Under the pieces are notes generated by a model, which was not told where the DNA came from, searched no databases, and saw only the letters and a list, made by a program, of their open reading frames with translations. DNA of 21,415 bases from positions 1 through 21,415 of the IMG/VR virus record IMGVR_UViG_2737471822_000004; one strand, 5' to 3'. Below are positions 2,055 to 20,257 of the stretch, piece after piece (the first letter of the stretch is position 1; the number at the start of each line of letters is the position of its first letter). The DNA is from a virus (Duplodnaviria; Heunggongvirae; Uroviricota; Caudoviricetes). A program made the position numbers and the translations under genes.

Positions 2055-2336
2055 TCAGACAGGAATCTGCTGACGGCTTGACAGTTTTGACGCGGAGCCA
2101 TAGCGATTGAGCGTTTGCTGTTGTTTTACCGGGGGTTGTGATTTGTCTGGTTCCTGTTCATTGCGCCGGGGTTTCATGATTATCTTATCCACACTCTCCA
2201 GTGCCGTAAATGTGCAGGAACATTCCAGATTCTGGCACTGATACCACGAGCGTTTAACTGACGGAGCTTCATAGGCTGCTGTTCTGGCGTGTGCAACTGT
2301 ACCGCATTCCGGACATTTAAGTGCCATTAAAATCAC
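2055..2336 (-). CDS. delta: Ogr/Delta-family zinc-finger late transcription activator (93 aa)
   Basis: Translation carries the CPECG...HART...YQCQN.ECS zinc-finger pattern typical of P2 Ogr / P4 Delta. Start overlaps the psu stop by 4 nt. Confidence 0.85.
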   Translation of the reverse strand: MILMALKCPECGTVAHARTAAYEAPSVKRSWYQCQNLECSCTFTALESVDKIIMKPRRNEQEPDKSQPPVKQQQTLNRYGSASKLSSRQQIPV

Positions 2337-2884
2337 TCCTGTATATCGTTAATGTCATTCAGGCGTTGCTGAAAATGCAGATGTTGTGCCGGGGTGTAAG
2401 AGTCCTGGCAATCACGAATCATCCCGGGGTCAGGTATCAAACCGGATTCATCCAGGATCTCACGATAATCCCCGGCAATTTCAGGCGGTGTTATTGCCAG
2501 CTGGCGAACCAGAGCACTGCGTAATATACGGGACGCAACGTCAACCCCTCCGCGTCCCTTCAGGAACGGAGCCAGTGCAGATGTCAGGGCTGCCCCATTC
2601 GCCTGCATAAAATTGCTGAGAGCTGCTTCTGTGCAGGCCTCCATCAGTAAATGCTGCGAGTAAATGCATTCGCGCGCAGCACAGTTAATTTGCCATTTCA
2701 GCACATCCAGACGTTCCCGCAGTAATTCGAGCTGTCGGGCATAATCTGCTGGTTTTTCTGTGGCAGCAAGGAGAGATGCTATCTGTTGTTCAACGGCTTT
2801 TCGGCTCTCACTATGTCCGGCCCACAGAATACGGGCATTCCGAAAACTGGTAAGTGCCTGGTCAGGCGTGCCTCGGGCCGTCAT
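2333..2884 (-). CDS. psu: Psu-like polarity suppression / capsid decoration protein (183 aa)
   Basis: Size, all-helical composition and recalled P4 Psu motifs (LKWQIN.AA, FMQ..G.AL..ALAP, YTPAQ). Sits inside the late operon, coupled to sid and delta by 4-nt overlaps. Confidence 0.7.
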   Translation of the reverse strand: MTARGTPDQALTSFRNARILWAGHSESRKAVEQQIASLLAATEKPADYARQLELLRERLDVLKWQINCAARECIYSQHLLMEACTEAALSNFMQANGAALTSALAPFLKGRGGVDVASRILRSALVRQLAITPPEIAGDYREILDESGLIPDPGMIRDCQDSYTPAQHLHFQQRLNDINDIQE

Positions 2885-3624
2885 ACTGCTTTCTCCTTCT
2901 CAGCAAGTTCCTGACGAACCTTAATTTTATGCATAGCTGCCGGAGAGAGTTGATTACTGAAATCCAGACGCGCCGCATAATCCGGGGCAATTCCCGCCAG
3001 TTTAAACACCGGGTCCTGTTCAGGCATCGCATCGTTAGCCAGAGCCGGTCTGGTGATATGTTTATGAATAAAGTCTTTCAGCACTGTGTCCGGGTCATTA
3101 ACTGAATTCACCACACCCACAACGGCACTGGCTTCCCGGCCCATTGTGGATTTAAGCAGGCTCAGCGTCTGAATAAGCGCTTTTCCATGCGACTGCATAA
3201 AATCTTCCCAGATTTGTTTTGCACGAATATCCACAAGAATATTATGCGCGTGGATATACTTTCCGGCTAATTCTGCAGCTTTCTGCGGCAAAAGTGCATT
3301 TTCGCTTTCCTGAGCCGCCAGCAGCTCATCAAAATCCTCAAGCGTTTCTCGTCCCAGCGCAATTTCCGTGCGCAGTTTTTTCATTTCCTTTGAGACCACG
3401 CCCTGACTTTCACGAAACAGCGTGCGCCACTCCTCATTCAGTGTGTTCGTCGTGGCTTCCATTTCAGCGCGACGCTGGCGGATTGTCGCAATATTATCCG
3501 CTGCCGCTTTCTGCTGACGACGTGCTTCAAGCCATGCGTTTCTGGCTGTGTTCATGGTTTCCAGTGCCCGCTGCGTTACAGCCGGAAAAGTGGAAAGGTT
3601 GTTATTCACTGCGGTGTTGTTCAT
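2881..3624 (-). CDS. sid: Sid-like external scaffold / capsid size determination protein (247 aa)
   Basis: First gene of the late operon, immediately downstream of tandem TGT-N12-ACA dyads. Size close to P4 Sid, helical Ala/Glu-rich sequence. AGGAG 6 nt upstream of ATG. Confidence 0.65.
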   Translation of the reverse strand: MNNTAVNNNLSTFPAVTQRALETMNTARNAWLEARRQQKAAADNIATIRQRRAEMEATTNTLNEEWRTLFRESQGVVSKEMKKLRTEIALGRETLEDFDELLAAQESENALLPQKAAELAGKYIHAHNILVDIRAKQIWEDFMQSHGKALIQTLSLLKSTMGREASAVVGVVNSVNDPDTVLKDFIHKHITRPALANDAMPEQDPVFKLAGIAPDYAARLDFSNQLSPAAMHKIKVRQELAEKEKAV

Positions 3625-3658
3625 GACTTCTCCTGTCGGGTTGGTTCGTTACGTCAAT

Positions 3659-3714
3659 TGTGTCGTGGCTGACACAAGCACACTATCGGTGATCAGTGTG
3701 TGGTGGCTGGCACA
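3659..3714 (-). promoter_or_regulatory. Late promoter region with two TGT-N12-ACA dyads (Ogr/Delta-type activator binding sites)
   Basis: TGTgtcgtggctgacACA at 3659-3676 and TGTgtggtggctggcACA at 3697-3714, centres 38 bp apart, about 45 and 80 nt upstream of the sid ATG. Confidence 0.6.
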
Positions 3715-3802
3715 ACGGGCGCTTGCGGTTATTCAGACGTGGCTATGAAAGCCAGCCAGATAAAAATGCCCTCTGTTTCAGTCTGCTTTATGTCCCTGAT
3801 GC

Positions 3803-3991
3803 GGTGGAACAGGTGAAACATGTGTTACTGCTTTGTTTTATAAAGTATTTATATACACTGCACCGGTGGAACATCGCGGGTAACAAGGTGGAACAGCGGA
3901 TTGGCTGGCGTTACATCTGTTCCACCTCACTATTTCAGAAGGTGAAACAGGTTCAGCCCTTGTAAAATACGGTTGTTCCACCTGTTTCACC
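3803..3991. repeat. Iteron cluster: 8 copies of 9-mer GGTG(G/A)AACA in both orientations, candidate alpha-binding origin/crr
   Basis: Copies at 3803, 3812, 3866, 3887, 3941 (forward) and 3919, 3974, 3983 (inverted, TGTT(C/T)CACC). Outer pairs form an 18-bp inverted repeat. Located between the alpha stop and the sid promoter. Confidence 0.7.
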
Positions 3992-4025
3992 TGTTACCCT
4001 TAATAAATAAGACTCACGCAAAGCC

Positions 4026-6698
4026 TTAACCCGGCACCTCGCTGTTGAAGACATAGAGCCTGCGGGGATTCATCTCTGGCGGGCGAATGGTTGTCTGGAG
4101 TTTGCCATCAGTGGAGGGCAGCAGGTATCCACGATCTGCGCACAGACGCGCCACCTTGCGCGGGTCAAATCCCCTGCAGATTTCTTTCCAGCCGGACGGC
4201 ATGACATAGAACGTAGTGACAGCTTCCGTGCCCTGCGCGGTACTGCCTTTCTCCACCCTTCGCCAGCCCACCATATTGCCGGGGCGGTTGCGCTCGTCAT
4301 ACCAGTCTGCAAAGCGGCTGTACTGATTCGCGGTAAAGAAACTGCGAACCTGCTCCAGTGCGGCGATATCTTCCTGATTGGCGGTGTGCCCGCGATCTTT
4401 CAGCCATGCGTTCAGGCAGACGCGGGTTGCCCGCAGTGCTTCACCCTCAGGCCAGCCGGTGATACCCAGACGGGTTGCCAGTTCACCTGCCATCGCCACC
4501 AGTGCAAAGCGGTTCACAGCCCGGCCCACTTGATTGCCTGCATCTTTCGGAGTCAGGGCGGCAGCATATTCCTTCATCAGCGATTTTGCCTGTGCCGTTA
4601 GTCCGTTAAGATCAGCGGTCAGTGCTTTCAGCCACTCCCGGAACGGCGAACCGTAGTAGCAGGACGTGGCCCATTCAAGATGCTCTGCCAGAGCCTTGCC
4701 GCTGTCGAAGCCGTGCAGCTCCTCAAAAACGCCAAACTTCCCGGAATCGCTGGGGATCTGGATCATCCTGACTTCCATCCCGGCAAAAGTACGCTCACCG
4801 GCCTTTGCCGCATGTTCGGTCAGAGACAACTCGCCAGTTGAAAAGAACAACAGGCGCCACTGCTTACGGGTACGCAGCTCACCGTCCGTACCGGCACGGC
4901 CCTTGCCTTGACCGTTTGCCAGCATGTAGGCGATATTGCCTGCCTCGCGTCCGTCAACTTCCCGGATCTCATCAAGCATCATGGCGGCATCGTTGCGGCG
5001 GCTGGCGCATCCCTCCAGCGCGTTGCCGGTGGCCCGCCATGTCTGCCAGTAGTCAGGCCCGCCGCAGACGGAGGTTGCTGCTTTCATGGTGGTGGTCTTA
5101 CCGTCTGTCGATTCCCCTTTGAGGTGGTAGCCGCCGCCGTCCATACCAACCAGCCGTAACAGTGGTGCAGCAAAGGCCAGGCTGACAGCAAATGCCACGC
5201 GGGAGTTGCCGGTACAGTAGCGGGATACATGCTCCCGCCATTCCTCTGTTGTGCCCGACACGCGGAAATCACGCCCCTGCACGGAAGTGGTCTGGAGAAT
5301 GACACCCTCTGCACCTTCACCGCTGACCTCATCCTGCAGGACGTAAACCTGACCATGCCAGCCAGTACGACTGACGCAGGTCACGCGGCGTTCCGGTTTA
5401 CACAGTGAGATATATTCCATCAGGCGTGCGCGTGCCTCACCGGTGGTGCTGATATAAGACAGCCCGTTAACCAGCAGTACCCGGCGCAGTTCCTCACCAC
5501 TGCCGCTCAGCATTTCCATCGGCATCGCCCAGCGGCGACACTCACCCCACGTATCTTCCCATTCCAGCAGTCGTCCGAAGTTACCGCCATCGGCATCGCA
5601 GGTGATTGCCGTCACGCGCAGCGGGCTGCATATTTTGACGTTCTGGATCTCCGTCTCACCGTTGCGCTGTACCTGCTTTTCATACCAGAGATATTCCTGG
5701 GTAAGACGGAACCCGTGCGGCAGTTGCGTGCGGCTTTCCCCGCACAGTACCAGACCGTTGCGAAAGGCTTCACGGGCACGGGTAATACCGTGCTCCCGAT
5801 GAAAGTCATTCCAGTCAGCCTTAATCTCTCCTGGTGGCAGCGTCATCCAGCCGCCAACAGCTTTTGCCGCCCGTTCAGCAAAGGCTCTGCCGGGATTCTC
5901 ACCCCCGTCCTGAAAATCGTTATCACCGGCGATGATAATTTTTACCTCAGGCCAGCGTGCCCGCAGCGACTGCGCCACATTGGGCAGGTTGCCCGCAGAT
6001 ATGGCAGCCACTACGCATCCGGCAGTGAGCTGGCTTACCGTCAGCGCCGTAGCGTAACCTTCGGTAATCACCACCTGTATCGGTGGTTCAGACGGTAACG
6101 GGCTGAGCGACACAAACGCGCCTTTCATCGTGCTGCCGGGCAGTATGCTTTTTTCACCCGTCGGGGCGATAAGCTGTGCACCGGTCACGGCTCCGGTGTT
6201 GGTCGTGAGTGGTAACAGCAGGGAACCGGCAGGAAAATCCTTACCGCTGATATGCTGTACGCTTCCGGTCAGAGAGGCCGGGTATCCGGCGAACCCTTTT
6301 CCTGTCAGATAGGCGCTTTCTCCCGTGTGGCTCTCTTTCATCAGCGCCGCCACGGTAAGACCCATGTCGCGTTTAGGGGCTTTTTGTCTGGCAGGCTTAA
6401 CAGGCAGTTCCTGCATATCCGGCACATTAAGCACCTGCGCCACCTCCTGCGCAGCCTTTCTGACGCTGTAACCGGTTACGAGCTTAACCAGATCCAGACC
6501 GTCACCATTGCCACACTGGCTGCAGATCCACGTCCCGCGCCCGTCAAGGTCATCAAGGCGAAAACGATCCTTGCCCCCACATTTCGGGCAGGGACCGTGC
6601 CTGCCGTTTTCAGGTACATCAATACGCAGCATCTGCAGAATAACGGGCCATTTCCCCCGTGCGGCGGCTGAAACCTGCGTAACCGTCTGTATTGTCAT
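4026..6698 (-). CDS. alpha: Alpha-type primase-helicase (890 aa)
   Basis: N-terminal zinc-binding CPKCGG...CSQCG, TOPRIM-like EGYATAL / AGDND acidic motifs, C-terminal Walker A GESTDGKTT. Start overlaps the upstream ORF stop (ATGA). Confidence 0.9.
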   Translation of the reverse strand: MTIQTVTQVSAAARGKWPVILQMLRIDVPENGRHGPCPKCGGKDRFRLDDLDGRGTWICSQCGNGDGLDLVKLVTGYSVRKAAQEVAQVLNVPDMQELPVKPARQKAPKRDMGLTVAALMKESHTGESAYLTGKGFAGYPASLTGSVQHISGKDFPAGSLLLPLTTNTGAVTGAQLIAPTGEKSILPGSTMKGAFVSLSPLPSEPPIQVVITEGYATALTVSQLTAGCVVAAISAGNLPNVAQSLRARWPEVKIIIAGDNDFQDGGENPGRAFAERAAKAVGGWMTLPPGEIKADWNDFHREHGITRAREAFRNGLVLCGESRTQLPHGFRLTQEYLWYEKQVQRNGETEIQNVKICSPLRVTAITCDADGGNFGRLLEWEDTWGECRRWAMPMEMLSGSGEELRRVLLVNGLSYISTTGEARARLMEYISLCKPERRVTCVSRTGWHGQVYVLQDEVSGEGAEGVILQTTSVQGRDFRVSGTTEEWREHVSRYCTGNSRVAFAVSLAFAAPLLRLVGMDGGGYHLKGESTDGKTTTMKAATSVCGGPDYWQTWRATGNALEGCASRRNDAAMMLDEIREVDGREAGNIAYMLANGQGKGRAGTDGELRTRKQWRLLFFSTGELSLTEHAAKAGERTFAGMEVRMIQIPSDSGKFGVFEELHGFDSGKALAEHLEWATSCYYGSPFREWLKALTADLNGLTAQAKSLMKEYAAALTPKDAGNQVGRAVNRFALVAMAGELATRLGITGWPEGEALRATRVCLNAWLKDRGHTANQEDIAALEQVRSFFTANQYSRFADWYDERNRPGNMVGWRRVEKGSTAQGTEAVTTFYVMPSGWKEICRGFDPRKVARLCADRGYLLPSTDGKLQTTIRPPEMNPRRLYVFNSEVPG

Positions 6699-7078
6699 AC
6701 TTCCCCCTCATACAACGTCACACCGGTACTGCAGAAGTCATCAAAGGCCGCCGGAAGCGTGCGGTACATCTCCGCCATCACTTCACAGCCGCGCGCGGTC
6801 AGTACCGGCGGCGCGGTCAGCAGTGACGGCTCCAGCATGTCAGTCAGCAGTGCCAGCGCGGCAGCGGCGCCCTGCACTTCGCCGTACTCGTTAATCAGTA
6901 CGCACTCGATATGCAGCGCAATGGCCATTTCAATACGCTCCACTGTCAGGCTGTGCGGACCATACTGATCACTGCCAGTTTCGTTCAGCATTTTCTGCCG
7001 CCATGCTGAAGCAATAGCCCGCCGGTAAAGCGCGGTGGTCATTTCTACCGGGAAAATGGAAACCTGCGGCTGGTTCAT
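6695..7078 (-). CDS. Hypothetical protein (127 aa), immediately upstream of alpha
   Basis: ORF with ATGA stop/start overlaps on both sides. Position is analogous to the small genes preceding alpha in P4 (orf151/epsilon region). No motif recognised. Confidence 0.55.
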   Translation of the reverse strand: MNQPQVSIFPVEMTTALYRRAIASAWRQKMLNETGSDQYGPHSLTVERIEMAIALHIECVLINEYGEVQGAAAALALLTDMLEPSLLTAPPVLTARGCEVMAEMYRTLPAAFDDFCSTGVTLYEGEV

Positions 7079-7359
7079 CTGGCACCTCCTTCAATCAGTG
7101 CGCAGCTGTGTGCAATATCCGTCAAATCTGCCAGCAGGTACTCCATCAGCGCGGCGACACCAGGCGCACAGCCTGCGTCCAGTGCTCCGGCCTGAGACGG
7201 GTATTCAGAAAAGAGAAGCTGGAGCATGTCGCAGGCATTTCTTGCGCGGGTCAGCTTTCCGAAACTGTCCTCTGACAACCCATAGGCAAAAGCACCGGTA
7301 TTGTGTTTTTCAGGCAAAGTGTGGCCCTGAGCACCGTTGAGCCCGTTTGAAATATTCAT
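7075..7359 (-). CDS. Hypothetical protein (94 aa)
   Basis: GGAG 10 nt upstream of ATG. Stop overlaps the next start. Epsilon-like by position and size only. Confidence 0.5.
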   Translation of the reverse strand: MNISNGLNGAQGHTLPEKHNTGAFAYGLSEDSFGKLTRARNACDMLQLLFSEYPSQAGALDAGCAPGVAALMEYLLADLTDIAHSCALIEGGAR

Positions 7360-8531: not shown

Positions 8532-8773
8532 ATACTATGGGGATATCAAAATGCTGTGAAGGTAGTGTAATCAACTCTACCTGTAGATTGTTTCAGTCTA
8601 CCCCTTTTGTTTTAATCCCGCATGATTAACCGCTAATCGTAATTTTCTTAAGATTTCTTGTTCATTAGTGATAAATATTGGAGGTAGCTCTCCTAAATGT
8701 TTAATTATGGCGTTAGTCCACTTTTCAGGACTTATCTCTTTTCTTTCACCACGACATTCGCTTGGGTATTTTG

Positions 8774-9481
8774 CTAATATATATATATGGCTGCATTTAA
8801 TAACCCCTCCCTATTTTTTGCATGATGCTCAGCAGTGTTATTTAATCGCTTGGGGATTTTAGGTTCAGATGAAATTCTTTTCGTAAGTAAACTTGGCATA
8901 GGAATTCCAGTTTTTACTGATTTCCATATTAACTCTAAATCTCTTCGCATGATAAGAAGATCTTCAAATGGAATCTCAATGACCTTATTTCCTTCATATG
9001 AGGCCGTTGCCATCAAAACATTATCTCGTATTTTTACCGGTTTAAGCCTGAATTCATAATCTGGATCTATAGCTAATCCATTTTTTATGTCACTTATCAT
9101 ATCATCGGCGTACCAAATACCACAGGCAAATCCTATAATTTGAAGCCCATTTTCAAAATGTTCAAAGGAATCATCTTTAAGGTCATACCATATTGTTGAA
9201 AATTCCATCTCTAGTGATTGATTAGTTAATACGGGATGAATTAAGTCAATTTCCATTTTCTGATTTTTATTGAGGAAATTAACATTAAATCTAACTGCAA
9301 GTCCATCCGCCTTGAATGCGATATTAAAAGCGCCTATTTCGTATAGATGTAATAAATCATCAATCTCGCATTCTAATAGTCTTGAAGCGCGTTCAAATGA
9401 ACAATATTCTAATGGTGGTATTTTTTTGTCAATCCATAGATTTCCTAAGAATATAGTTTCATTCTCTGTTGAATGCTGCAT
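8774..9481 (-). CDS. Hypothetical protein (235 aa), AT-rich cargo gene between integrase and alpA
   Basis: Long ORF with GAGG 7 nt upstream of ATG, 30 nt downstream of the integrase stop. Lower GC than neighbours. No motif recognised. Confidence 0.6.
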   Translation of the reverse strand: MQHSTENETIFLGNLWIDKKIPPLEYCSFERASRLLECEIDDLLHLYEIGAFNIAFKADGLAVRFNVNFLNKNQKMEIDLIHPVLTNQSLEMEFSTIWYDLKDDSFEHFENGLQIIGFACGIWYADDMISDIKNGLAIDPDYEFRLKPVKIRDNVLMATASYEGNKVIEIPFEDLLIMRRDLELIWKSVKTGIPMPSLLTKRISSEPKIPKRLNNTAEHHAKNREGLLNAAIYIY

Positions 9482-9511
9482 TATGACCTCTGTTTTAAAT
9501 TATAAGAGTAT

Positions 9512-10846
9512 TTAATTGATAATGTTAATACCTGATAAGTCATAAGGAGCATGGAATTCGTCCTTATTTAGTTCCAGATAATTAGACCACCATTGCATCA
9601 TTCTGCGGCGTTCCTGCATGTGCTGCGCAAGATGCACATATGCTGCCCGCACTTCGTTTCTTTCTTGGTGACTCATCTGCCGTTCAACTGCATCGCGTGA
9701 CCAGAGTCCTGATTCGGTCAGTGCAGAGCAGGCCATCGCCCTGAACCCATGCAAGCAAACATCAGTTTGAGTGTCGTAACCCATCGTTCGCAGTGCTTTA
9801 TTAACTGTGTTTTCGCTCATCGGTTTATATGGGTTGCTGTCACCGGGAAAAACCAGCAGATATTCACCACTGATTTTCCTTATATCCTCCAGTACCCCGA
9901 TAGCCTGACTAGATAGCGGGACATAATGAGCAGCCCCCATCTTTGCACCCCGATCTGAGAATTTAACCCCTGCGATCTCTTCACGTTGTCCTGGTATCGT
10001 CCATAGCCCATTTTCAATGTCGATCTCCTCCCATCTGGCATGTCGTAGTTCGCTGGATCGCACAAAAGTGTGCAGGGAAAAGAGAACTGCTAGGCGAGTC
10101 AATGGTCTTCCCGTGTAACTTCTCGTTTTCGCTAACAGTTCAGGTAAACGTTCGAGAGGTAGTGCGGGGCGATGTCGTACTTTGGGGGCCGTAATTGCAC
10201 CTTTTAGATCGTGGGCAGGGTTGTAATCGACAATTCCACGTTGCACGGCATAACGGAAGATGCTCGTCATAGTGGTTTTTACACGGCTCGTTGTGGCACC
10301 AATTCCTTTCTCAGTCATCTCAACCAGCATCGGCATCAAGTCACGGGTTTTGAGCGTATCGATAGGCTTTGAACCGATGGCAGGAAAGAGGTGGTTTTCC
10401 ATTTCTCGGAGAATTTTTTTACGGGTGATCTCTTTCCACTCAGGATGCCCCATCGTTCCACTATGCCACTCTCTGGCAACACTCTCGAACGTGGGGGAAA
10501 TTGGGTCTTCCTTTTTGGGTTTCTTTGCTTCGCGAGGATCACGACCATCGGCTAGTAGTTGCCTGGCTTCATCACGCCGTTTCCGCGCTGTTGCAAGTGA
10601 GACATCTGGGTAGACCCCTAATGCTAATGTCACTTGTTTTCCATCAAAACGATAATTCATACGCCAGTATTTTCCACCAGTCTTTCGTACCAGTAGATAC
10701 AAACTCCCTCCATCGGTAAGTTTGTAATCATTGGTCTTCGGCTTGGCGTTTTCTATCTGTTTGGGGGAAAGCACATTAATGGCCATATCTGTACTCATTT
10801 TGGTAAATTGATGGTATCTGCATATCGAACTGGGGAATACCATCAC
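9512..10846 (-). CDS. Tyrosine recombinase, P4-family integrase (int1); probable true start at 10786 or 10798
   Basis: N-terminal arm-binding domain (KLTDGGSLYLLVRKTGGKYWRMNYRF...VTLALGVYPDVSLATARKRRDEAR) and C-terminal catalytic region (HGFRA...RAAYVH...RRRMMQWW). The canonical N-terminus begins at MAINVLSPK. Confidence 0.9.
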   Translation of the reverse strand: MMVFPSSICRYHQFTKMSTDMAINVLSPKQIENAKPKTNDYKLTDGGSLYLLVRKTGGKYWRMNYRFDGKQVTLALGVYPDVSLATARKRRDEARQLLADGRDPREAKKPKKEDPISPTFESVAREWHSGTMGHPEWKEITRKKILREMENHLFPAIGSKPIDTLKTRDLMPMLVEMTEKGIGATTSRVKTTMTSIFRYAVQRGIVDYNPAHDLKGAITAPKVRHRPALPLERLPELLAKTRSYTGRPLTRLAVLFSLHTFVRSSELRHARWEEIDIENGLWTIPGQREEIAGVKFSDRGAKMGAAHYVPLSSQAIGVLEDIRKISGEYLLVFPGDSNPYKPMSENTVNKALRTMGYDTQTDVCLHGFRAMACSALTESGLWSRDAVERQMSHQERNEVRAAYVHLAQHMQERRRMMQWWSNYLELNKDEFHAPYDLSGINIIN

Positions 10847-11057
10847 TTATACCATCACGAGGTTGTAATGTCATGAAATTAACTGAAATGAAAATCAGGC
10901 CGATTCGGTGATAACTTACTGTTTTTTTAAGTGGTTATGTAATGAAGTGAAATGTAGAGAAAGGTCTTTAAAGTGTCCCTGCAGACATCTACTTGAGGCG
11001 GCAGGGGGTTGATTAGAATGGTGTTTTTTAGATTTGAGAAATATTTTACCCGCTATT
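10847..11057. other. Inter-element junction: candidate att site region, duplicated alpA start segment, and direct repeats
   Basis: Contains a second copy of the 16-mer TAATGTCATGAAATTA that overlaps the alpA start codon (10866-10881 versus 8487-8502), a tRNA 3'-end-like GTGTCCCTGCAG (10963-10974), and a TATTTTACCC direct repeat at 11042-11063. Confidence 0.35.
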
Positions 11058-11258
11058 TTACCCATTCGCGCGGCTTAAGAGCTTATTTTTGAATTCACAA
11101 TGGTCACGATATAACCATCTTGCTCGTCCGTGGATAACTTTGGCTTTAGGCAGGTCGCCGGACTTAATCCGGTCATAGATGAAGGTTTTACCAAAGCCAG
11201 TATCAGCCATGATGAATTTCAAATCAACCAGTGAATCAGGTTGTAGTTCGTGTTGCAT
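11058..11258 (-). CDS. torI: TorI-like excisionase / recombination directionality factor (66 aa, AlpA/Xis-type winged helix)
   Basis: 66-aa protein MQHELQPDSLVDLKFIMADTGFGKTFIYDRIKSGDLPKAKVIHGRARW... with an HTH_17-like pattern. I recall this as the E. coli KplE1 TorI sequence. GGAGA upstream of ATG. Lies at the prophage end opposite the IntS-like integrase. Confidence 0.65.
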   Translation of the reverse strand: MQHELQPDSLVDLKFIMADTGFGKTFIYDRIKSGDLPKAKVIHGRARWLYRDHCEFKNKLLSRANG

Positions 11259-11300
11259 GAGTGCTATCTCCGAATAGGGAATCGAACCTGCAAATCAGGC

Positions 11301-11323
11301 AATAAAAAACCGCATTGATGCGG
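11301..11323 (-). terminator. Rho-independent terminator at the end of the early operon
   Basis: Minus-strand hairpin CCGCA-ucaa-UGCGG followed by UUUUUUAUU, between the 114-aa gene and the torI-like gene. Confidence 0.6.
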
Positions 11324-11382
11324 CAATGGTAGGTCTGGATATCTTGAGAAATGAACGGGCCTCATCGAGTGTGAGGCTGTGG

Positions 11383-11727
11383 TTAGTCCTTGCGTAACTC
11401 GCTAATTCTTCTGTAAGTCTCTGGTGCTTTGTTTCCGTGTATCTTCATTTCAGACTTCAACAGAGCAACGAGAGAATCCCATTCGTTGAGGATGCCTTTG
11501 AATGCCGGAACGCGCTTTGCAACCTTGTCGAATGAATCCCTGATTTCTGGAATCTGCTCGACAAGCGCAACGCATCGCCGGAAGTCGGCTACGTCATGTG
11601 GAGCGCCGAAGTGATGACCATAGATATTCTTTTTCAGTCCACATGCGATTGAGGCAAGAGTTGCGCTACTGATGCCAACATCGCCAGTCGATTGCCATTT
11701 CAAAACCTTCATAGCCAAATCTGACAT
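11383..11727 (-). CDS. Hypothetical prophage protein (114 aa)
   Basis: ORF co-oriented with the early operon. No motif recognised. Confidence 0.5.
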   Translation of the reverse strand: MSDLAMKVLKWQSTGDVGISSATLASIACGLKKNIYGHHFGAPHDVADFRRCVALVEQIPEIRDSFDKVAKRVPAFKGILNEWDSLVALLKSEMKIHGNKAPETYRRISELRKD

Positions 11728-11799
11728 TTCTTGTCTCCATAAAACAAAACTCGCCGTAGCGAGTTCAGATAAAAGAAATCCCCGCGAGTGCGAGGATTG

Positions 11800-12084
11800 T
11801 TATTCATTGCCGATATTCACCTTTATCGCGAACACCTTTACCGGTTTATCGCCGAAGTGCGGATGTGTGATTGTCTTGATTTCATATCCGTCATACGGGA
11901 CGTCAATTCTGCGGCTGGAATCGTCGCGCTTCGGATATCCCTTTGTGATAATCAGGCGGTCATGCTTACGGTTAACGAGGCGCTTTTTCCAGTAGTCATT
12001 ACACAAGCGATACTCTTCCGTTTTCTCCCCGCGAATCATGGCATCGAAGTATTCACCTTTGACGGCAAGTTGCAGGTTAGCCAT
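11800..12084 (-). CDS. ASCH/DUF3850-like small protein (94 aa from the ATG at 12084)
   Basis: MANLQLAVKGEYFDAMIRGEKTEEYR resembles the N-terminal pattern of ASCH/DUF3850 proteins. GGAGGTG 7 nt upstream. TAATG stop/start overlap with the upstream gene. Confidence 0.55.
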   Translation of the reverse strand: MANLQLAVKGEYFDAMIRGEKTEEYRLCNDYWKKRLVNRKHDRLIITKGYPKRDDSSRRIDVPYDGYEIKTITHPHFGDKPVKVFAIKVNIGNE

Positions 12085-12344
12085 TACCGCACCTCCAGTT
12101 TCCATACCGCCTGACCAATCCGGCTGGCATAGGTATCTTTGGATACTGCTCCGTCTTTAGCCAGCTCCATAAGAATTTTGCGCAAATCTGCCGAACGCCA
12201 TTCTTCATCAGGAAATTCCTTCTCCATTGCCAACCGCAGATTCCAGGTTGCTATCGTGAATGGATATTCCCCGCCGAGAGCTTTCTCTTGCAGGGCAGAA
12301 CGGGAACGCATCACCTGCAAAACCTTCTCTTTTACATCCATCAT
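12084..12344 (-). CDS. Hypothetical prophage protein (86 aa)
   Basis: ORF translationally coupled to both neighbours (4-nt overlap with the DUF551 gene, 1-nt overlap with the ASCH-like gene). Confidence 0.5.
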   Translation of the reverse strand: MMDVKEKVLQVMRSRSALQEKALGGEYPFTIATWNLRLAMEKEFPDEEWRSADLRKILMELAKDGAVSKDTYASRIGQAVWKLEVR

Positions 12345-13342
12345 TTTGCCTCCTGCGGCGGTTCTGGTAGTGGCATCCAGTGTGTGACATTGCTAATCAG
12401 ACCATATTCATTAGTTTGAGGATGGTTGCCGTTATCGTCTCCGTATTTAAGACTCTCCATAAAACCATAATGCTTATTCCCATTAACGCTCACAAAGCCG
12501 TAATAAGCAGGTATAACGCCGATCTCACACGTAACCAGCAAAGGAAAACCAGTTCTCCAGTTTAGTTCACCGATTTCAGGCATTCGATCACTACAGCTTA
12601 TCCAACTATCCGGAGTTACCGGAGAGTTGCCCGATAGCGCGTTCTGCAGTCGCTCCAGCTTCACGTATTCCTGAACCCTGTTTCCGTCGCATGCCTGAAG
12701 CCATTGCGCAGCCTTTTGCGCATCAGTGTGAAAGGCACAAGTGCGACCGTCATCAAATTGCATTTCGTAGAGGTCAGCAACTTGTTCAAACTGCGTGTGT
12801 TGTGACTTGTAAGTTTGGCTTACAGGTTCGGCTTCCAGTTCTGCTATGCGCTTCTCTGTGGATTCCAGCGCTGCAACCAATTCGTCTACAGTTCCGGCAG
12901 CTTGCAGTGCGTAATCGGTAATAGCCATCTCATGATCAATTTCAGTACCGTTCTCATTCGTTGAGGTGATAGCAAAATAATCAGAGTCGATTTCGTTATC
13001 AGCTAAGTGGCGTAGCGTATCGGCAACAAGCTGGCCGTTTTCGATTAGCAGCCTCCCAACCGTAAGCGCAATATCCTCGTTCTCCTGGTCGCGGCGTTTT
13101 ATGTATTGCTGGTTTCTTTCCCGTTCATCCAGCAGCGCCAGCACGGTTTCTGGTCCGGTCAGAAATTTGAAGGCGTTGAGCGCATCAATATCCACACCGT
13201 AATCTTTAAGTTCCTGTTCACTTAACAAATCATCATCAGCTGGCAACATTAACAGGCGTTCCATTGCTGGAATTGCACGTTCCGCCGCCTCACGCAGTGC
13301 CTGGTAATTAATTTCGCTCACTGGTTGCCTCCTTTGCGCCAC
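12341..13342 (-). CDS. DUF551-domain phage protein (333 aa), Ea22-like early-region protein
   Basis: C-terminal [10 protein letters not shown]...LLVTCE...YYGF...[12 protein letters not shown] matches the DUF551 pattern common in lambdoid early-left operons. Acidic N-terminal region. Confidence 0.65.
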
Positions 13343-13501
13343 ATCGCATTCAGATATTTGTTTTGATTCACTGATGGAAAAGAATTTCTCTTAAGCAATT
13401 CCTCTCTCGATGGCATTGGCTTTACGCGTTGGCGAATAATCATTTCCGCCGGAAGAATTCCGGGATTGTATGCAAGTCCTCTCATGGTAAATTCCTCTTT
13501 G

Positions 13502-13816
13502 TTAATTTATTCGTATGCCTGTTCTCTCTTCATCGAGTTTTTTTAGCTTGTATCGCATAGCTCTTACTGAATAAATTGAGCGGCAGGTTGCAATTGCTAT
13601 TTCTTCTGCGGAGAACTTACCGAAAAGTGATACTTCGGCTCTTGTCCATCGTCTTCCACGAAGTCGGCTAACAATGTCAGCGCCAATCCTTGTTGCTTTC
13701 GCCATTACTGCTTTTTCAGTCCTTTCCAGTTTTTCAGCGATAACTTCAACTGGCATTGTCGCCGCCACTTCGCGCAAGAAATCGACTTCCCATTTCTCCC
13801 ATGGAGTCTTTTTCAT
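13502..13816 (-). CDS. Hypothetical prophage protein (104 aa)
   Basis: ORF in operon context. Basic C-terminus. No firm family. Confidence 0.45.
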
Positions 13817-13827
13817 AGGCGATACCG

Positions 13828-14316
13828 TTATTTGATAAGAAGTGAAGGTTTCCCAACTTTGAGTTGAGCGCCGGGGATATTTATTCCTGCTTTTAGTTGG
13901 TGCTTGATTGCCAACTTGTCGGCTTTAATTGTCGTTTCGAACTCAACGTATTCAGGAGGAAGGGCGCTTGAGTCGATGATTTCTACAATTTCTGACGGTT
14001 TGCGGATTGTTACCTGGTGAATACCTGCTCGAATATTTTTCTTGCCAACCATTTCAAGCGATGACGCTATATATGATTTGATGCTGTCAATCTTATTTTG
14101 AATTACTGCGGCTCGCTCATTCAGTGACTTTGCCTCTTCCTTGAGGCGTTCAGCATAAGCAGATTCATTTTTAATGACGGAAAGAAGTTGCTCTATTTTA
14201 TCGGTAAATTCTCCTTCCATGCCTTCTATTGTGTCAGCAATCATCTCTGGTTCTAAATCTGAATCCATCAATTTTGCGTATTCATTGGCAATTTCATACA
14301 GTTTGCTCACTGGCAA
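13828..14316 (-). CDS. Sipho_Gp157-like protein (162 aa), frequent partner of RecT/Erf recombinases
   Basis: Coiled-coil N-terminus and C-terminal ...IKADKLAIKHQLKAGINIPGAQL... pattern. Start overlaps the 3' end of recT. Confidence 0.5.
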   Translation of the reverse strand: MPVSKLYEIANEYAKLMDSDLEPEMIADTIEGMEGEFTDKIEQLLSVIKNESAYAERLKEEAKSLNERAAVIQNKIDSIKSYIASSLEMVGKKNIRAGIHQVTIRKPSEIVEIIDSSALPPEYVEFETTIKADKLAIKHQLKAGINIPGAQLKVGKPSLLIK

Positions 14317-15205
14317 CCTCCAGTTTCGCTTTGCATTCTATGTAAATGGCTTGTACGTTCTGCTGTAATTTCATTCCAGATGTCAGGCGATATGCTTCTG
14401 CAAAATATCGCTTCAAATCATCCATGTTTTCTGCCTGAGCCATTTCATCGCAAAGAAGTTGTACTTTATCCATTATTTCCTGCTGGCGTTTCCGTTCATC
14501 TTCGCGGATATCTTCCTCTGATTTGTGCGGCATAACTGGTTCAGTCCACACACCTTCTTCTTCGTTTAGTACGTGAATAGCACTATCAAGACGTGATGCC
14601 TTAGGCCAATACTTGCTTGCACGCTTTACGACCGTCTTTCGCGCCATCTCATTCCAGTGATTTACCCATGGTCCTTTATCGCTGAATGCCGCCTTGCTTG
14701 TTTTCCTTACAGCCTCAATTTCAGCCAGACTCATCTCTTCCGTTAGATAATCACCTGCTGGCGTCTTAACTGTGCAGTAAACGCCAACGATATCACCGCG
14801 ATCACCGAAGGCGTTGTATTTATGGGTTGGTGCTTTATCAAGCCCGTTTGACTCATAGGTATCGTTAGCATGAACAAGTTTTGCCTGACCCCATGAGATA
14901 ACACCAGACTCCATTGCAATATGGAGCAACCCCATATAACTGATATCAAGGCACACCATGCCGTCGCGCGGAACCAGATAAGCCAGTTTGCTAGCCGGGT
15001 TTAAGGTGATGCCGATCGCCGCAACATTGATGATGGCGTTCTGTGCGCTGGTTGGATTTGCCAGTGCCGTTTTAGCCAGGTAATCGTTTTTCTGGAAATA
15101 CTGAATTGCAAACTGGCTTTCCTTAGCCCATGTCACCGTCTGTTCAGTCAATGCTCCGCAGAATAACTGCTCCTGCTGTTTAACGAATTCAACGATATTG
15201 CTCAT
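14294..15205 (-). CDS. recT: RecT-family single-strand annealing recombinase (303 aa)
   Basis: GPWVNHWNEMARKTVVKRASKYWP matches the conserved RecT motif (Rac RecT: GPWVTHWEEMAKKTAIRRLFKYLP). Family-level call. Confidence 0.8.
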   Translation of the reverse strand: MSNIVEFVKQQEQLFCGALTEQTVTWAKESQFAIQYFQKNDYLAKTALANPTSAQNAIINVAAIGITLNPASKLAYLVPRDGMVCLDISYMGLLHIAMESGVISWGQAKLVHANDTYESNGLDKAPTHKYNAFGDRGDIVGVYCTVKTPAGDYLTEEMSLAEIEAVRKTSKAAFSDKGPWVNHWNEMARKTVVKRASKYWPKASRLDSAIHVLNEEEGVWTEPVMPHKSEEDIREDERKRQQEIMDKVQLLCDEMAQAENMDDLKRYFAEAYRLTSGMKLQQNVQAIYIECKAKLEVASEQTV

Positions 15206-15513
15206 GCTGCTTCTCCAAAAATGTGTCTGCGCTTGAATATTGCGAAGGCATATTCAGCCTTAACTCTTTCGGTTATTGCATCCCAGAACCATTCAGCGGC
15301 TTTTTCCTGATAGTTACAGTCATCATCTTCCAGCCAGTCGATAGCGTCCTTAGTGTGTTCATCTGGTTTATATGAGCGAAGCATTTCGCTTATTGGGTCG
15401 CAACGTTTGCAGAGGCGATCAACTTCACTGTTGATTCGTTCGTAATCTTCATCAGTAAAACTTGCGATTATTTGCGATATTTCACGCTTATCATTCAGAG
15501 TCAGAATCATCAT
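15202..15513 (-). CDS. Hypothetical prophage protein (103 aa)
   Basis: ORF with 4-nt overlap to recT. Acidic. No motif recognised. Confidence 0.5.
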   Translation of the reverse strand: MMILTLNDKREISQIIASFTDEDYERINSEVDRLCKRCDPISEMLRSYKPDEHTKDAIDWLEDDDCNYQEKAAEWFWDAITERVKAEYAFAIFKRRHIFGEAA

Positions 15514-15598
15514 CTTTCTCCTGTTCTTTGTGCTGATTGAGCATTTTGTTCATCTGACGAATGAATTCTTCGTCTGACCAGTTATCCGTAAAACTCAT
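15491..15598 (-). CDS. Possible small ORF (35 aa, acidic C-terminus)
   Basis: Below the ORF-track cutoff. Its ATG overlaps the stop of the upstream 56-aa ORF (ATGA) and its 3' end overlaps the 103-aa start. Supported only by coupling geometry. Confidence 0.25.
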   Translation of the reverse strand: MSFTDNWSDEEFIRQMNKMLNQHKEQEKDDDSDSE

Positions 15599-15765
15599 GG
15601 ACGGCCTTGTTGTTTCAAAATATCCCAAAGCTTTTCGAGCAAACTTTTCATTCTTGGTTGTTTAAAGTCTGCTCCGGTTAAAATATTTTTTCGTGAATGC
15701 TGTACCGATAAAATCGGGTTGAAAGGGCGAACCGATGCCGCCCCTGCAATAGCGAACTGTTGCAT
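15595..15765 (-). CDS. Possible small protein (56 aa), leader gene of the early operon
   Basis: AAGGAG 6 nt upstream of the ATG at 15765. The longer 91-aa frame has no RBS at its first ATG. Confidence 0.3.
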   Translation of the reverse strand: MQQFAIAGAASVRPFNPILSVQHSRKNILTGADFKQPRMKSLLEKLWDILKQQGRP

Positions 15766-15825
15766 AGGATGCTCCTTCTGTTTGATTGCATAACGAAAAC
15801 GCCTCGAGTGAAGCGTTATTGGTAT

Positions 15826-15855
15826 GCATATAAAAAGGCCCTCACACTGGAGGGC
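15826..15855 (-). terminator. Rho-independent terminator downstream of the 108/141-aa gene
   Basis: Minus-strand hairpin GCCCTC-cagugu-GAGGGC followed by CUUUUUAUAU. Confidence 0.6.
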
Positions 15856-15961
15856 AAAGAAGACTTCCAATAATCAGAACAAGTCGGCTCCTGTTTAGTT
15901 ACGAGCGACATTGCTCCGTGTATTCACTCGTTGGAATGAATACACAGTGCTTATTCGCAGC

Positions 15962-16288
15962 CTACATAATCATTCCGGTTATTATTACCATTTCAATATC
16001 ACTATCTTTCATAATGATTGGAGTTGAGTTATCAACTTTACTTTTACTCCATTTTCCTGCATCAGTTTTTAACGCTCCACAATAAGAAAGCCAATCATCA
16101 TCACAATGTTCTGGAACACTAATTCTGACAAGAACACGTGATAGTGCTTTTTCGATACTTTCATCACAATTAGCATTTGTGTAATTGCCGTGAGACAATT
16201 TCAAATCGTTAACTTCATCTTCATTGGCATCAAAAATATAGATTTCAGTCGACTCTGGAACATTTTCATAAACCATTAAAACTTTCAT
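15962..16288 (-). CDS. Hypothetical protein (108 aa from the ATG at 16288; the ORF is open to 16387)
   Basis: GGGG 5 nt upstream of the internal ATG (MKVLMVYEN...). Own terminator downstream. AT-rich. Confidence 0.45.
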   Translation of the reverse strand: MKVLMVYENVPESTEIYIFDANEDEVNDLKLSHGNYTNANCDESIEKALSRVLVRISVPEHCDDDWLSYCGALKTDAGKWSKSKVDNSTPIIMKDSDIEMVIITGMIM

Positions 16289-16392
16289 TTTTACCCCATA
16301 TTGTTTATGCCAAAAATAAAGGCCACCATCAGGCAGCCTTTTTGTAAATGTTGCAGGTATCAAGTAAGTAATTAGATGGAGCGCCATAAATT

Positions 16393-18099
16393 ATGAATTC
16401 ATCGTTTGTCGGGTCCATCTCCATCTCTTGGCCTATTGCCATTCTTGCGTCAGTGTCATCAGAGGCGAAGCATAAAACAGCCCCCGTCACCATCCCAGGA
16501 GACATCATTATCGATGCTTCTACTGGAGAATTTACCTTCAATGGCATTGATTATATTTTCCATCCGCTTGGCGCAAAATCAGTAGAGATTATCGGCGGTA
16601 AGTTCACCGCAAATGCATACCACACCCAGCGTCCTCAGGTAATTTTCAATGATTACCCTGATGGGCTGGAGAATTTACCAACGCGCGTGGTGATAAAAGA
16701 TATGCAATGCTTTAACTGCGGTGTTGGCTACATCATGGTTAACTGCCAGGACCCAACAAGCATCCACGTTACGGTTGATAACAACTACTGTAAGACTGAT
16801 GACAACACTGACCAGTATATCTCTGATGCGGGTATGTCAGGTGGGCAGGGTGAGGTATACCCATATCTGATGATTCTTGGTAATACGACAGAATCCGTCG
16901 ATATTGGAACGCCTCGCAAGTCAATGTTCCATGTGACCAATAATACCTTTGATGTTTTTATGCAGAGTGGTCCTAATGCAGATTTGGGTAAAGTTGGTGG
17001 TACTACGATAGGCGGCAATGTTAACGGCAATCTTTTCTGCAACAGGAATACGGAATGTGCATGCGAATTTGACACTTTTACTGGTGGTCTTGAAGTATCT
17101 TTAACATCAAACCGTTTTGTTAACACTGCCATTAAAATGATGTCAATGCAATTTGATAGCAGCACTCGCGTCGGATTAGGTGGTAGATCTTCAATATCGA
17201 ATAACGTATTTCATTTTGAAGAAAATCCGTTAAATGACTTTGCAATATTCTTACGGACATCACTTGTTAGCATATCTAATAATGTTTTTTATTACAAAGG
17301 TGCGAGCATTCCATCAGATCAGAGGATATTTAACTTTATAGCATCACAGGCGCTCAACAATAGTAACAATGGTTTCAACGGAACATGGTGCGCAGGTATT
17401 AGTATCACCGGTAACACAATGCAAATGGTGTTAGACCCTGCCGTAAACACGTCTCTAAGATTGCAATGTATTAACCCGACTGATATGTCAGGAGCGGTTA
17501 TATCGGGTAATTTTATGGCGGGCGGAGTAGGAATGGTGCTTAACGCCAGACCAGAAAGAAACAGAAACGTATGGACAGGTAACTTCATTACGTCAGGGTT
17601 ATTTACGGCAGAAGATATCTGGCGAATGAACTCAGCTTTTGTAGGTTCAGGGAACTACATCGGCAATGGTTATGATAATACGGTTAATGGCATAGCAATG
17701 TTGAGCAAGACTATACCCGCGGTATCAGATGGTTCAAAGATAAGAATTACTCTTGACCAGCAGATATTAACCGGGGCTGCATCTGACCGCTCACTTTACC
17801 TTCTCCACATAAAAGTAACCGGTGGGGTAAAAAACAACTACGCTACATATATCATGTCTTCTGGTGCGCATGACGCAACAGCAAGAGCCGACGCAACTGA
17901 CCTTAAACCCCCTATTGACCAGCGTTTAAACCCAGGAGATACTTCCATTGCAAACCTGCAAAGTTGCTTTAAAGCCGGATACAATGGAAGTGGGTATATT
18001 GTGCTTGAGGCCCTTTCAACATTCAGCGCGGCAAATCAGCCACCAACAAAAATTGAATATGCAATAGTACCATTATCAACAAACTTCCCAACGCTGTAA
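16393..18099 (+). CDS. Parallel beta-helix protein, probable phage tailspike / receptor-binding depolymerase (568 aa)
   Basis: Repetitive Gly/Asn/Thr-rich sequence with recurring ISNNVF / ITGN / ISGNF motifs typical of right-handed beta-helix tailspikes. Adjacent to an O-antigen acyltransferase. No recognisable P22-type head-binding N-terminus. Confidence 0.55.
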   Translation: MNSSFVGSISISWPIAILASVSSEAKHKTAPVTIPGDIIIDASTGEFTFNGIDYIFHPLGAKSVEIIGGKFTANAYHTQRPQVIFNDYPDGLENLPTRVVIKDMQCFNCGVGYIMVNCQDPTSIHVTVDNNYCKTDDNTDQYISDAGMSGGQGEVYPYLMILGNTTESVDIGTPRKSMFHVTNNTFDVFMQSGPNADLGKVGGTTIGGNVNGNLFCNRNTECACEFDTFTGGLEVSLTSNRFVNTAIKMMSMQFDSSTRVGLGGRSSISNNVFHFEENPLNDFAIFLRTSLVSISNNVFYYKGASIPSDQRIFNFIASQALNNSNNGFNGTWCAGISITGNTMQMVLDPAVNTSLRLQCINPTDMSGAVISGNFMAGGVGMVLNARPERNRNVWTGNFITSGLFTAEDIWRMNSAFVGSGNYIGNGYDNTVNGIAMLSKTIPAVSDGSKIRITLDQQILTGAASDRSLYLLHIKVTGGVKNNYATYIMSSGAHDATARADATDLKPPIDQRLNPGDTSIANLQSCFKAGYNGSGYIVLEALSTFSAANQPPTKIEYAIVPLSTNFPTL

Positions 18100-18102
18100 A
18101 TT

Positions 18103-18138
18103 TGTGCGCACTATGAAAAAGTTAAATAGTGCGCACAA
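18103..18138. terminator. Bidirectional terminator between the converging tailspike-like and acyltransferase genes
   Basis: About 10-bp stem built on the self-complementary GTGCGCAC (18104-18111 and 18130-18137), followed on the plus strand by TTATTTATATTA. Confidence 0.55.
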
Positions 18139-18147
18139 TTATTTATA

Positions 18148-20103: not shown

Positions 20104-20257
20104 TATTCATCCGTATTCATTCTTTTTTGCTGTGCTGATATTAGCACTGACATCGCCACCGATCGACTTTTGAAGTGGTAACTAGGCGAAAACGGGATAC
20201 ACAAAGCTTTGCACTTGATTGCAAGGCGTTGTGCTCTTCGATAGTGGTTAAGGTGGA

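Follow-up and report, generated by a model that had tools for sequence, protein, structure and literature searches.

Gene content of the element

We analysed a 21,415-bp stretch of E. coli DNA, referred to throughout as the window. From position 1 to approximately 10,850, the window has the same layout as an island of E. coli strain PD4 that lies between dsdC and tRNA-Arg. All genes of this island are on the minus strand, and their listed order starts with the integrase and ends with two unannotated ORFs. The genes that matter most for this study are as follows:

9512–10846, minus strand: integrase, first in island order, followed by an HTH/AlpA-like regulator and then an Icd-like gene
6695–7078, minus strand: DUF5375/orf106, preceding alpha in island order
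4026–6698, minus strand: 890-amino-acid primase-helicase-initiator ('alpha'), assigned with Pfam and BLASTP; the iteron block comes next
2881–3624, minus strand: Sid-like Psu-family gene, after the iteron block (weak Psu Pfam match, E = 2e-9)
2333–2884, minus strand: psu (Pfam Psu), with the Ogr/Delta gene next

Pfam searches placed Psu domains on two ORFs and also detected DUF5375 and integrase domains. On an identical element, RefSeq annotates an Ogr/Delta-like protein, two polarity suppression proteins, an HTH regulator, an Icd-like protein and an integrase. As a core-gene test for P4-like satellites we used psu, sid, delta, an alpA-like regulator, alpha and an integrase, all of which were found within this island of approximately 10 kb. 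Judged by its gene content, the element is a P4-like satellite.

The late genes (2055–3624) run in the order sid-like, psu, delta and are co-oriented with alpha; in P4 the order is sid, delta, psu, divergent from alpha. Upstream of the sid-like start at 3624 we identified two TGT-N12-ACA dyads (3659–3676 and 3697–3714), 38 bp apart, with centres 43.5 and 81.5 bp from the sid-like ATG. Their geometry matches that of the P4 sid sites exactly (L001 9493–9510 and 9531–9548; ATG at 9583), and the distal dyad is identical to its P4 counterpart at 15 of 18 positions. The dyads probably represent a Delta/Ogr-activated late promoter on the minus strand. Promoter and terminator consensus scans of 3500–4150 returned nothing, with no sigma-70 consensus and no terminator-like hairpin between alpha and the iteron array. 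No Rfam family was found in the window, and no tRNA was detected in it.

Downstream of delta, two minus-strand ORFs (1–705 and 722–1570; 234 and 282 amino acids) matched no Pfam family, and RefSeq lists both as hypothetical proteins. Their location is the variable cargo position of P4-like satellites, which a published account describes as often holding anti-phage genes (PMC9122126). Past the satellite integrase, the window diverges from PD4, which has tRNA-Arg/yfdC there. The remainder of the window, from approximately 11000 to 21415, is a KplE1/CPS-53-like prophage segment with a TorI-type excisionase region, and it includes these genes:

12341–13342: Ead/Ea22-DUF551
13828–14316: Gp157
14294–15205: RecT
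18148–20103: AT3-SGNH acyltransferase
20258–21415: second integrase

From this arrangement, the satellite and the prophage appear to be integrated in tandem.

A single iteron array just after alpha

A first-pass annotation of this DNA had noted eight copies of GGTG(G/A)AACA within approximately 190 bp, and our pattern match confirmed this count. We found eight exact matches to GGTGRAACA in the 21,415-bp window, all of them inside 3803–3991 (at 3803+, 3812+, 3865+, 3887+, 3918-, 3941+, 3974- and 3983-). In 100 dinucleotide-preserving shuffles, the pattern averaged 0.35 copies and never exceeded 2, so that none reached eight. One-mismatch copies elsewhere in the window were at chance level (8 extra versus 8.6 expected in total). 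Using a relaxed pattern and alignment to relatives, we found 3–4 further degenerate copies. Together with the eight exact ones they span 26–223 bp past the alpha stop codon (4026–4028). The edge of the exact array is 35 bp from this stop codon, or 26 bp when the degenerate copy at 3992–4000 is included. The array is composed of the following parts:

3803–3820, plus strand: exact tandem pair GGTGGAACA-GGTGAAACA, flanking the AT-rich stretch towards sid
3821–3864, no strand: AT-rich spacer of 44 bp, a candidate DNA-unwinding element (GC 0.225 in 3820–3859)
3823–3828, minus strand: GTAACA core, a degenerate copy inside the AT-rich stretch
3865–3895, plus strand: same-direction trio of GGTGGAACA (3865–3873), degenerate CGGGTAACA (3877–3885) and GGTGGAACA (3887–3895)
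3909–3926, minus strand: inverted copies, degenerate GATGTAACG (3909–3917) and exact GGTGGAACA (3918–3926)
3941–3949, plus strand: single exact iteron GGTGAAACA
3974–4000, minus strand: alpha-proximal triplet of GGTGGAACA (3974–3982), GGTGAAACA (3983–3991) and degenerate AGGGTAACA (3992–4000)

The outer tandem pairs (3803–3820 and 3974–3991) had been described as an 18-bp inverted repeat. They are indeed inverted, but the repeat is imperfect, with 16 of 18 positions matching (89%), because the G and A variants stand in swapped order. The AT-rich trough at 3821–3864 is off-centre, with two exact copies on one side and six on the other, and the iterons that directly flank it are co-oriented, whereas the outer pairs are inverted.

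Each part of the array has a counterpart in related loci. The pair at 3803–3820 corresponds to the conserved distal '--' pair in alpha-oriented coordinates, and its equivalent lies at approximately +216/+225 past the stop codon in most related loci. All three copies of the trio at 3865–3895 are invariant among loci using the same word, and the degenerate copy at 3909–3917 is a full GGTGGAAC in relatives. The single iteron at 3941–3949 matches a copy that related loci have at a conserved position of approximately +90 past the stop codon, and the triplet at 3974–4000 is the +44/+53/(+62) tandem set of nearly all related loci. We found the iteron region at an identity of at least 90% in 326 of 5,426 complete E. 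coli genomes (6%).

The degenerate copies at 3877–3885, 3992–4000 and 3823–3828 read GGGTAACA or GTAACA, which is closer to the words of other specificity groups (described below) than to the window's own word. Close relatives share these copies, which could be left over from an earlier specificity or serve as low-affinity sites. Two ORFs overlap the array (3696–3965, plus strand; 3838–3990, minus strand). We treated them as non-coding rather than as genes, because they are unannotated in RefSeq, because conservation is restricted to the iterons and because the Shigella locus L032 carries a 1-nt indel.

Searches with the exact or one-mismatch pattern revealed no second iteron cluster in the window or in the complete PD4 element. 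Likewise, no other candidate origin, defined as an iteron array with an AT-rich stretch, is present in the element.

Domains of the adjacent protein

Pfam searches of the 890-amino-acid protein identified PF08273 (Zn_Ribbon_Prim), PF13362 (Toprim_3) and PF06048 (DUF927; E = 2e-90), and RefSeq names it 'TOPRIM and DUF927 domain-containing protein'. In BLASTP, P4 alpha aligned to amino acids 5–322 only, with 38% identity over 327 amino acids (E = 8e-49). A phmmer search of PDB sequences with the helicase part matched 8tch (SaPIbov1 Rep; E = 4.5e-15) and 5dgk (SCCmec Cch; E = 2.9e-13).

We then considered the C-terminal region. A profile of the last 140 residues gave an hhalign probability of 0.08% against the C-terminal 200 residues of P4 alpha and had no match among PDB sequences. 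An AlphaFold (AF2) model of amino acids 641–890 was confident over the last approximately 110 residues (pLDDT 85–94), with a helical region followed by a beta-beta-beta-alpha-alpha-beta-beta winged-helix-like domain. In a Foldseek search, this model matched Cch (E = 5e-5) and SaPIbov1 Rep (E = 2e-4) in their C-terminal parts (probability 1.0; approximately 210–228 aligned columns), and fold searches with the C-terminal domain also returned TcpK. Judged by these sequence and fold matches, the protein is a chimera of a P4-alpha-type primase with a DUF927 helicase, a helical region and a predicted C-terminal winged helix. We had also considered homology of the C-terminal domain to the origin-binding domain of P4 alpha and rejected it, as BLASTP, profile–profile comparison and a profile search of PDB sequences were all empty.

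Arrays in related loci

To place the array in its family, we compared 55 loci from species-representative genomes, 49 of them usable, and 59 loci from IMG/VR. The protein family is widespread in Enterobacterales, at 57–99% identity. An array is found just after the gene in about 95% of 105 related loci; it begins approximately 30–50 bp past the stop codon in 45 of the 49 usable genome loci and in 58 of the 59 IMG/VR loci. Copy positions and orientations are conserved, the typical order, read from alpha, being ++-++--, the AT-rich stretch and --. The position of the AT minimum is conserved as well (median +169 past the stop codon, with a median GC of 0.23; 46 loci).

The repeat word itself varies. 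At least eight different words occur among the related loci and are distributed by lineage: GGTGGAACA (the window), GGTGTAACA, GGGGTAACA/TGGGTAACA, CTGGTAACA / (C)TGGTAACA, GTAGTACA, TGGATACA, GCGGTTACA and TGGGAACA. Loci with the window's word keep every iteron invariant, and none of the related loci contains a P4 octamer array.

One Serratia locus (L051) encodes a DUF927 protein without a primase domain, approximately 65% identical, and carries 12 copies of the window's word between spacers that cannot be aligned with those of the window. The iterons therefore travel with the helicase and winged-helix part. The L051 gene (3614–5695) and those of L050 and L115 are DUF927-only homologues of approximately 693 amino acids that lack a Zn-ribbon or Toprim primase. 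They adjoin an AntA-type antirepressor gene and have the same kind of downstream iteron array, so the primase fusion is optional in the family.

Two intact homologues at 57% identity, L039 (Klebsiella spallanzanii) and L047 (Scandinavium), had no array within 600 bp downstream (of 6649). The IMG/VR locus L109, which has the same C-terminal sequence type as these two, likewise had no array. The origin of L039 and L047 may lie elsewhere.

A delta-like gene follows the array in every locus type examined. In the distant relatives L025 (Proteus; 6958–7185) and L038 (Enterobacter; 6966–7238), the iterons are directly followed by a gene for a zinc finger of the Ogr/Delta type, and no sid or psu was recognisable by comparison with the genes of the window. 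L025 also has a HEPN_LA2681 gene (8760–9518). By gene content, loci of the L025/L038 type look like delta-only satellites with the same replicon module.

Three genomes carry two copies of the module, and in each the words differ: Pantoea stewartii (L004/L046; GGTGGAACA with GGTGTAACA), Pantoea leporis (L013/L052; GGTGTAACA with TGGTAACA) and Enterobacter intestinihominis (L042/L012; GGTGGAACA with TGGTAACA). This pattern, in three out of three, fits incompatibility avoidance but is not significant, given that a random pair would differ with a frequency of approximately 0.7 (a rough estimate).

Word switches and a predicted DNA-binding hairpin

Considering that the word varies between lineages, we examined closely related proteins that use different words. 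Such pairs, 96–99% identical in protein sequence, are L023/L024, L025/L028, L019/L020/L030 and the window versus Pantoea L006/L013. In near-identical pairs the same change is present in each copy of the repeat (for example, GGTTACA to GGATACA), and the flanks and spacers can still be aligned. In five independent switches, amino acids 857–880 differed at 20 of 120 positions compared with 46 of 2,594 for amino acids 330–856, a 9.4-fold excess (Fisher p = 1.3e-12). Seventeen pairs sharing the same word showed no such excess (5.6% in amino acids 857–880 versus 4.2% in amino acids 330–856; p = 0.17). The segment concerned is the following:

4059–4130, minus strand: predicted beta-hairpin ('wing'), amino acids 857–880, including K866 and T870, delineated with the AF2 model, the fold matches and the substitution excess

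We propose that this hairpin is the iteron-specificity determinant. K866 is found in every locus with a GGTG/GGGG-type word (G at word position 2) and R866 in all others, in both data sets. Four of the five switches involve a change at column 870, whereas Q868 and R872 do not vary. From the alternation of side chains along a strand, residues 866, 868, 870 and 872 would be expected to lie on the same face. No column in amino acids 330–890 separates GGTGGAACA users from GGTGTAACA users across all lineages; these two words are therefore possibly not functionally distinct and may share one specificity.

The hairpin codons lie approximately 30–100 bp from the iterons. Because the two adjoin, block replacement by recombination could yield the co-variation by linkage alone. 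For L025/L028, the spacers are 15% divergent, and alpha is 4.8% divergent in nucleotide and 0.6% in amino-acid sequence. By a rough estimate the spacer divergence is near the synonymous level of alpha, a result that favours a change in place for these two loci. Bulk substitution rates of iterons versus spacers in close pairs were not discriminating, and the signal lies in the concerted changes at the same position of each copy. Whole-locus divergence scans of close pairs showed that other satellite genes, including upstream genes, differ too.

Outside the hairpin, column 197 (codon 6108–6110, minus strand) differs in five of five switch contrasts, always through small, conservative exchanges (S, A, T, V or I). 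The other hotspot of recurrent change is the linker at amino acids 90–205, which is hypervariable in general. No link of column 197 or of this linker to origin specificity was evident.

Origin model and alternative explanations

The locus has the features of a SaPI/PICI-type Rep-ori module, namely a DUF927 Rep helicase, a C-terminal domain with a predicted winged-helix fold and approximately 6–12 iterons downstream of rep. On this sequence evidence, we consider it highly probable that the block at 3803–4000 is the single replication origin of the P4-like satellite and that it is read by the winged helix of the adjacent initiator. The best-supported description of the replicon is a module of the SaPI/PICI type, not the two-part P4 type, with an initiator that took only its primase from the P4 alpha lineage. 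Iteron binding, melting at the AT-rich stretch, the site of initiation and orthogonality between groups are all features that we infer.

In the mechanism we propose, the gene at 4026–6698 would encode a self-loading initiator that combines a P4-alpha-type primase, a DUF927 hexameric helicase and a winged helix. The winged helix would bind the 9-bp iterons GGTG(G/A)AACA, which form inverted sets around the 44-bp AT-rich stretch. Helicase rings would assemble on the iteron sets and the AT-rich DNA would melt, after which the fused primase would start synthesis, allowing the excised satellite to amplify independently of its helper phage. Word specificity would reside largely in the hairpin that follows the recognition helix (amino acids 857–880), and the iterons and the hairpin would co-evolve, giving rise to mutually distinct replicon specificity groups.

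This model retains much of the first-pass annotation. The 9-mers had been taken for the cognate sites of the adjacent 'alpha' variant. The co-variation of hairpin and word supports the cognate relationship, but the protein is not P4 alpha beyond amino acids 5–322. The cluster had been called an origin or a cis-required enhancer; an origin is the most likely of these, and with only one cluster in the whole element the framing as ori1 or crr falls away. A replication specificity group distinct from that of P4 had also been suggested, and this holds, with at least eight groups in which the hairpin co-varies with the repeat word.

We weighed several other explanations. Under a bipartite arrangement of the P4 type, the cluster would serve a variant of P4 alpha as its crr enhancer (or ori1), with a second cluster some kilobases away. 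The element is P4-like in its sid-like, psu, delta, DUF5375/orf106 and integrase genes, its primase is 38% identical to that of P4 alpha, its word resembles GGTGAACA, and the cluster just after alpha is in a crr-like position. However, the absence of a second cluster from both the window and the complete PD4 element largely refutes this arrangement; the origin-binding part is unrelated to that of P4 alpha and belongs to the SaPIbov1 Rep/Cch family, and no related locus has a P4 octamer array. We therefore regard it as very unlikely. Another alternative is that the alpha-like protein does bind the iterons but uses them mainly as control sites, for copy-number control by titration or handcuffing, for autoregulation or termination of the alpha operon, or for modulation of the late promoter. 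Iteron arrays of other replicons, such as iteron plasmids, often serve both as origin and in control. The array does lie between the end of the alpha operon and the Psid-like late promoter (sites at 3659–3714, 88 bp away), with no terminator-like hairpin separating it from alpha. Against this, there is no other candidate origin in the element, a conserved AT-rich trough lies inside the array, and the family precedent is an ori downstream of rep (PMC9371898, PMC6092414). Control would add to the origin function, not replace it, and we judge a role mainly in control to be unlikely.

The iterons could also be bound by a different protein, such as Ogr/Delta, an AlpA-like regulator or a host factor, with co-variation reflecting linkage only. 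The delta-like gene that follows the array in all locus types would fit such a binder, as would the divergence of other satellite genes in close pairs and the co-inheritance expected of hairpin codons that adjoin the iterons. Delta/Ogr sites, however, are TGT-N12-ACA dyads and are separately present at 3659–3676 and 3697–3714 with P4-identical geometry, and these sites are conserved whereas the iteron word switches rapidly. Moreover, the substitution excess is confined to the predicted DNA-binding hairpin and arises only upon a change of word, and in Serratia the word is retained beside a DUF927 protein whose gene neighbourhood is different. These findings leave a different binder scarcely plausible. 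Finally, apart from the shortness of the word, nothing favours a chance or non-functional repeat cluster. Eight copies against 0.35 expected, a layout conserved in more than 100 loci of many genera and concerted word changes refute it, and its probability is negligible.

Implications for satellite biology

P4-like satellites are found in about a third of enterobacterial genomes, and surveys treat 'alpha' as one component, without origins or iterons (PMC8628076, PMC10085698). Within the literature searched, nothing specific emerged on P4-like origins, or on DUF927 with iterons, in enterobacterial satellites. The principle is not new, as iteron origins beside Rep genes are well established. What the present analysis suggests is that a common E. 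coli lineage (6% of complete genomes) carries a SaPI/PICI-style Rep-ori module grafted onto a P4 primase, with the origin in one compact block of approximately 200 bp, and that this module has diversified into specificity groups of iteron and hairpin. It also names a few candidate specificity residues. Whether satellites residing in one cell have compatible replicons becomes directly testable, and the engineering of P4-based delivery particles could draw on the module for small orthogonal origin/initiator pairs.

A broader and more tentative proposal, which we hold to be possible but somewhat doubtful, is that P4-like and delta-carrying satellites of Enterobacterales share this chimeric initiator, and that substitution of one or a few residues on one face of the hairpin (K/R866, 867 and 870), along with concerted turnover of all 8–12 iterons, gives it a new origin specificity, resulting in at least eight mutually orthogonal replicon groups. 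If this were true, several satellites could coexist and amplify in one cell without cross-talk, and the family would represent a compact, naturally sampled protein–DNA recognition code. As a corollary, the split ori/crr of P4 would be a rearranged derivative of a single alpha-ori-sid arrangement, or the reverse.

Comparison with known replicons

P4 has octamer type I iterons (TGTTCACC/GGTGAACA), and P4 alpha is their binder. In the annotation of P4 (NC_001609), the type 1 repeats read GGTGAACA and are found at crr, just after alpha, and at ori, upstream of sid, in clusters approximately 4.5–5 kb apart. The satellite family and the neighbourhood are shared with P4 (orf106/DUF5375-alpha, and sid with a Delta-dependent promoter), although the gene order here is sid-psu-delta with all genes co-oriented. 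The Zn-ribbon/Toprim primase is homologous, whereas the helicase and origin-binding parts are without similarity. Where P4 has two cis clusters several kilobases apart, there is one cluster here, and it fills both P4 positions: it follows alpha closely, as crr does, and its distance of 88 bp upstream from the distal Psid activator site is comparable to that of P4 ori, which lies 80 bp upstream. The first-pass comparison with the P4 ori1/crr iterons holds in that the word GGTG(G/A)AACA resembles GGTGAACA with one extra base; it is a 9-mer, not the P4 octamer, and the readers are not detectably homologous. The likeness of the words is real at the level of sequence but is not evidence of a homologous reader.

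Close parallels are found with SaPIs. The Rep of a SaPI is a self-loading helicase and initiator that recognises iterons through a winged helix in its C-terminal domain. The SaPI ori directly follows rep and has 6–12 iterons distributed around an AT-rich region, no fewer than two of them on either side and in opposite directions (PMC9371898). In SaPI5, the primase and Rep are fused (PMC9371898), and Cch has a DUF927 domain and is a relative of SaPIbov1 Rep (PMC7581432). Like SaPIbov1 Rep and SCCmec Cch, the protein described here has a DUF927 helicase, by both sequence and fold, and a predicted C-terminal winged-helix domain; like SaPI5 PriRep, it has a primase fused to the helicase. The proposed origin, too, lies directly downstream of the gene and has iterons, an internal AT-rich region and inverted outer sets. 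Unlike SaPIs, the element resides in a Gram-negative host and is a P4-like (sid/psu/delta) satellite, its fused primase is of the P4-alpha Zn-ribbon/Toprim type, and its iterons are 9-mers rather than penta- or hexamers. The array is also less symmetric than the SaPI description, with the AT-rich stretch between two and six copies and the flanking copies co-oriented.

In E. coli PICIs, an AT-rich region lies between two iteron sets adjoining pri-rep, and a rep-ori segment of EcCICFT073 supports plasmid replication; PICI Pri-Rep has been described as different in sequence from P4 alpha (PMC6092414). The present element shares with these PICIs the host species and, in its proposed origin beside a primase-helicase gene, the presence of iterons on both sides of an AT-rich region. 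Unlike this element, E. coli PICIs exploit helper phages of the lambdoid or phage-80 type, and sid, psu and delta are absent from them. Iteron plasmids of the RepA/pi/TrfA type provide a further comparison, as they also have short words next to an AT-rich unwinding element, winged-helix readers and incompatibility or specificity groups. Their initiators are non-helicases that recruit host DnaB, whereas here the initiator would be the primase-helicase itself.
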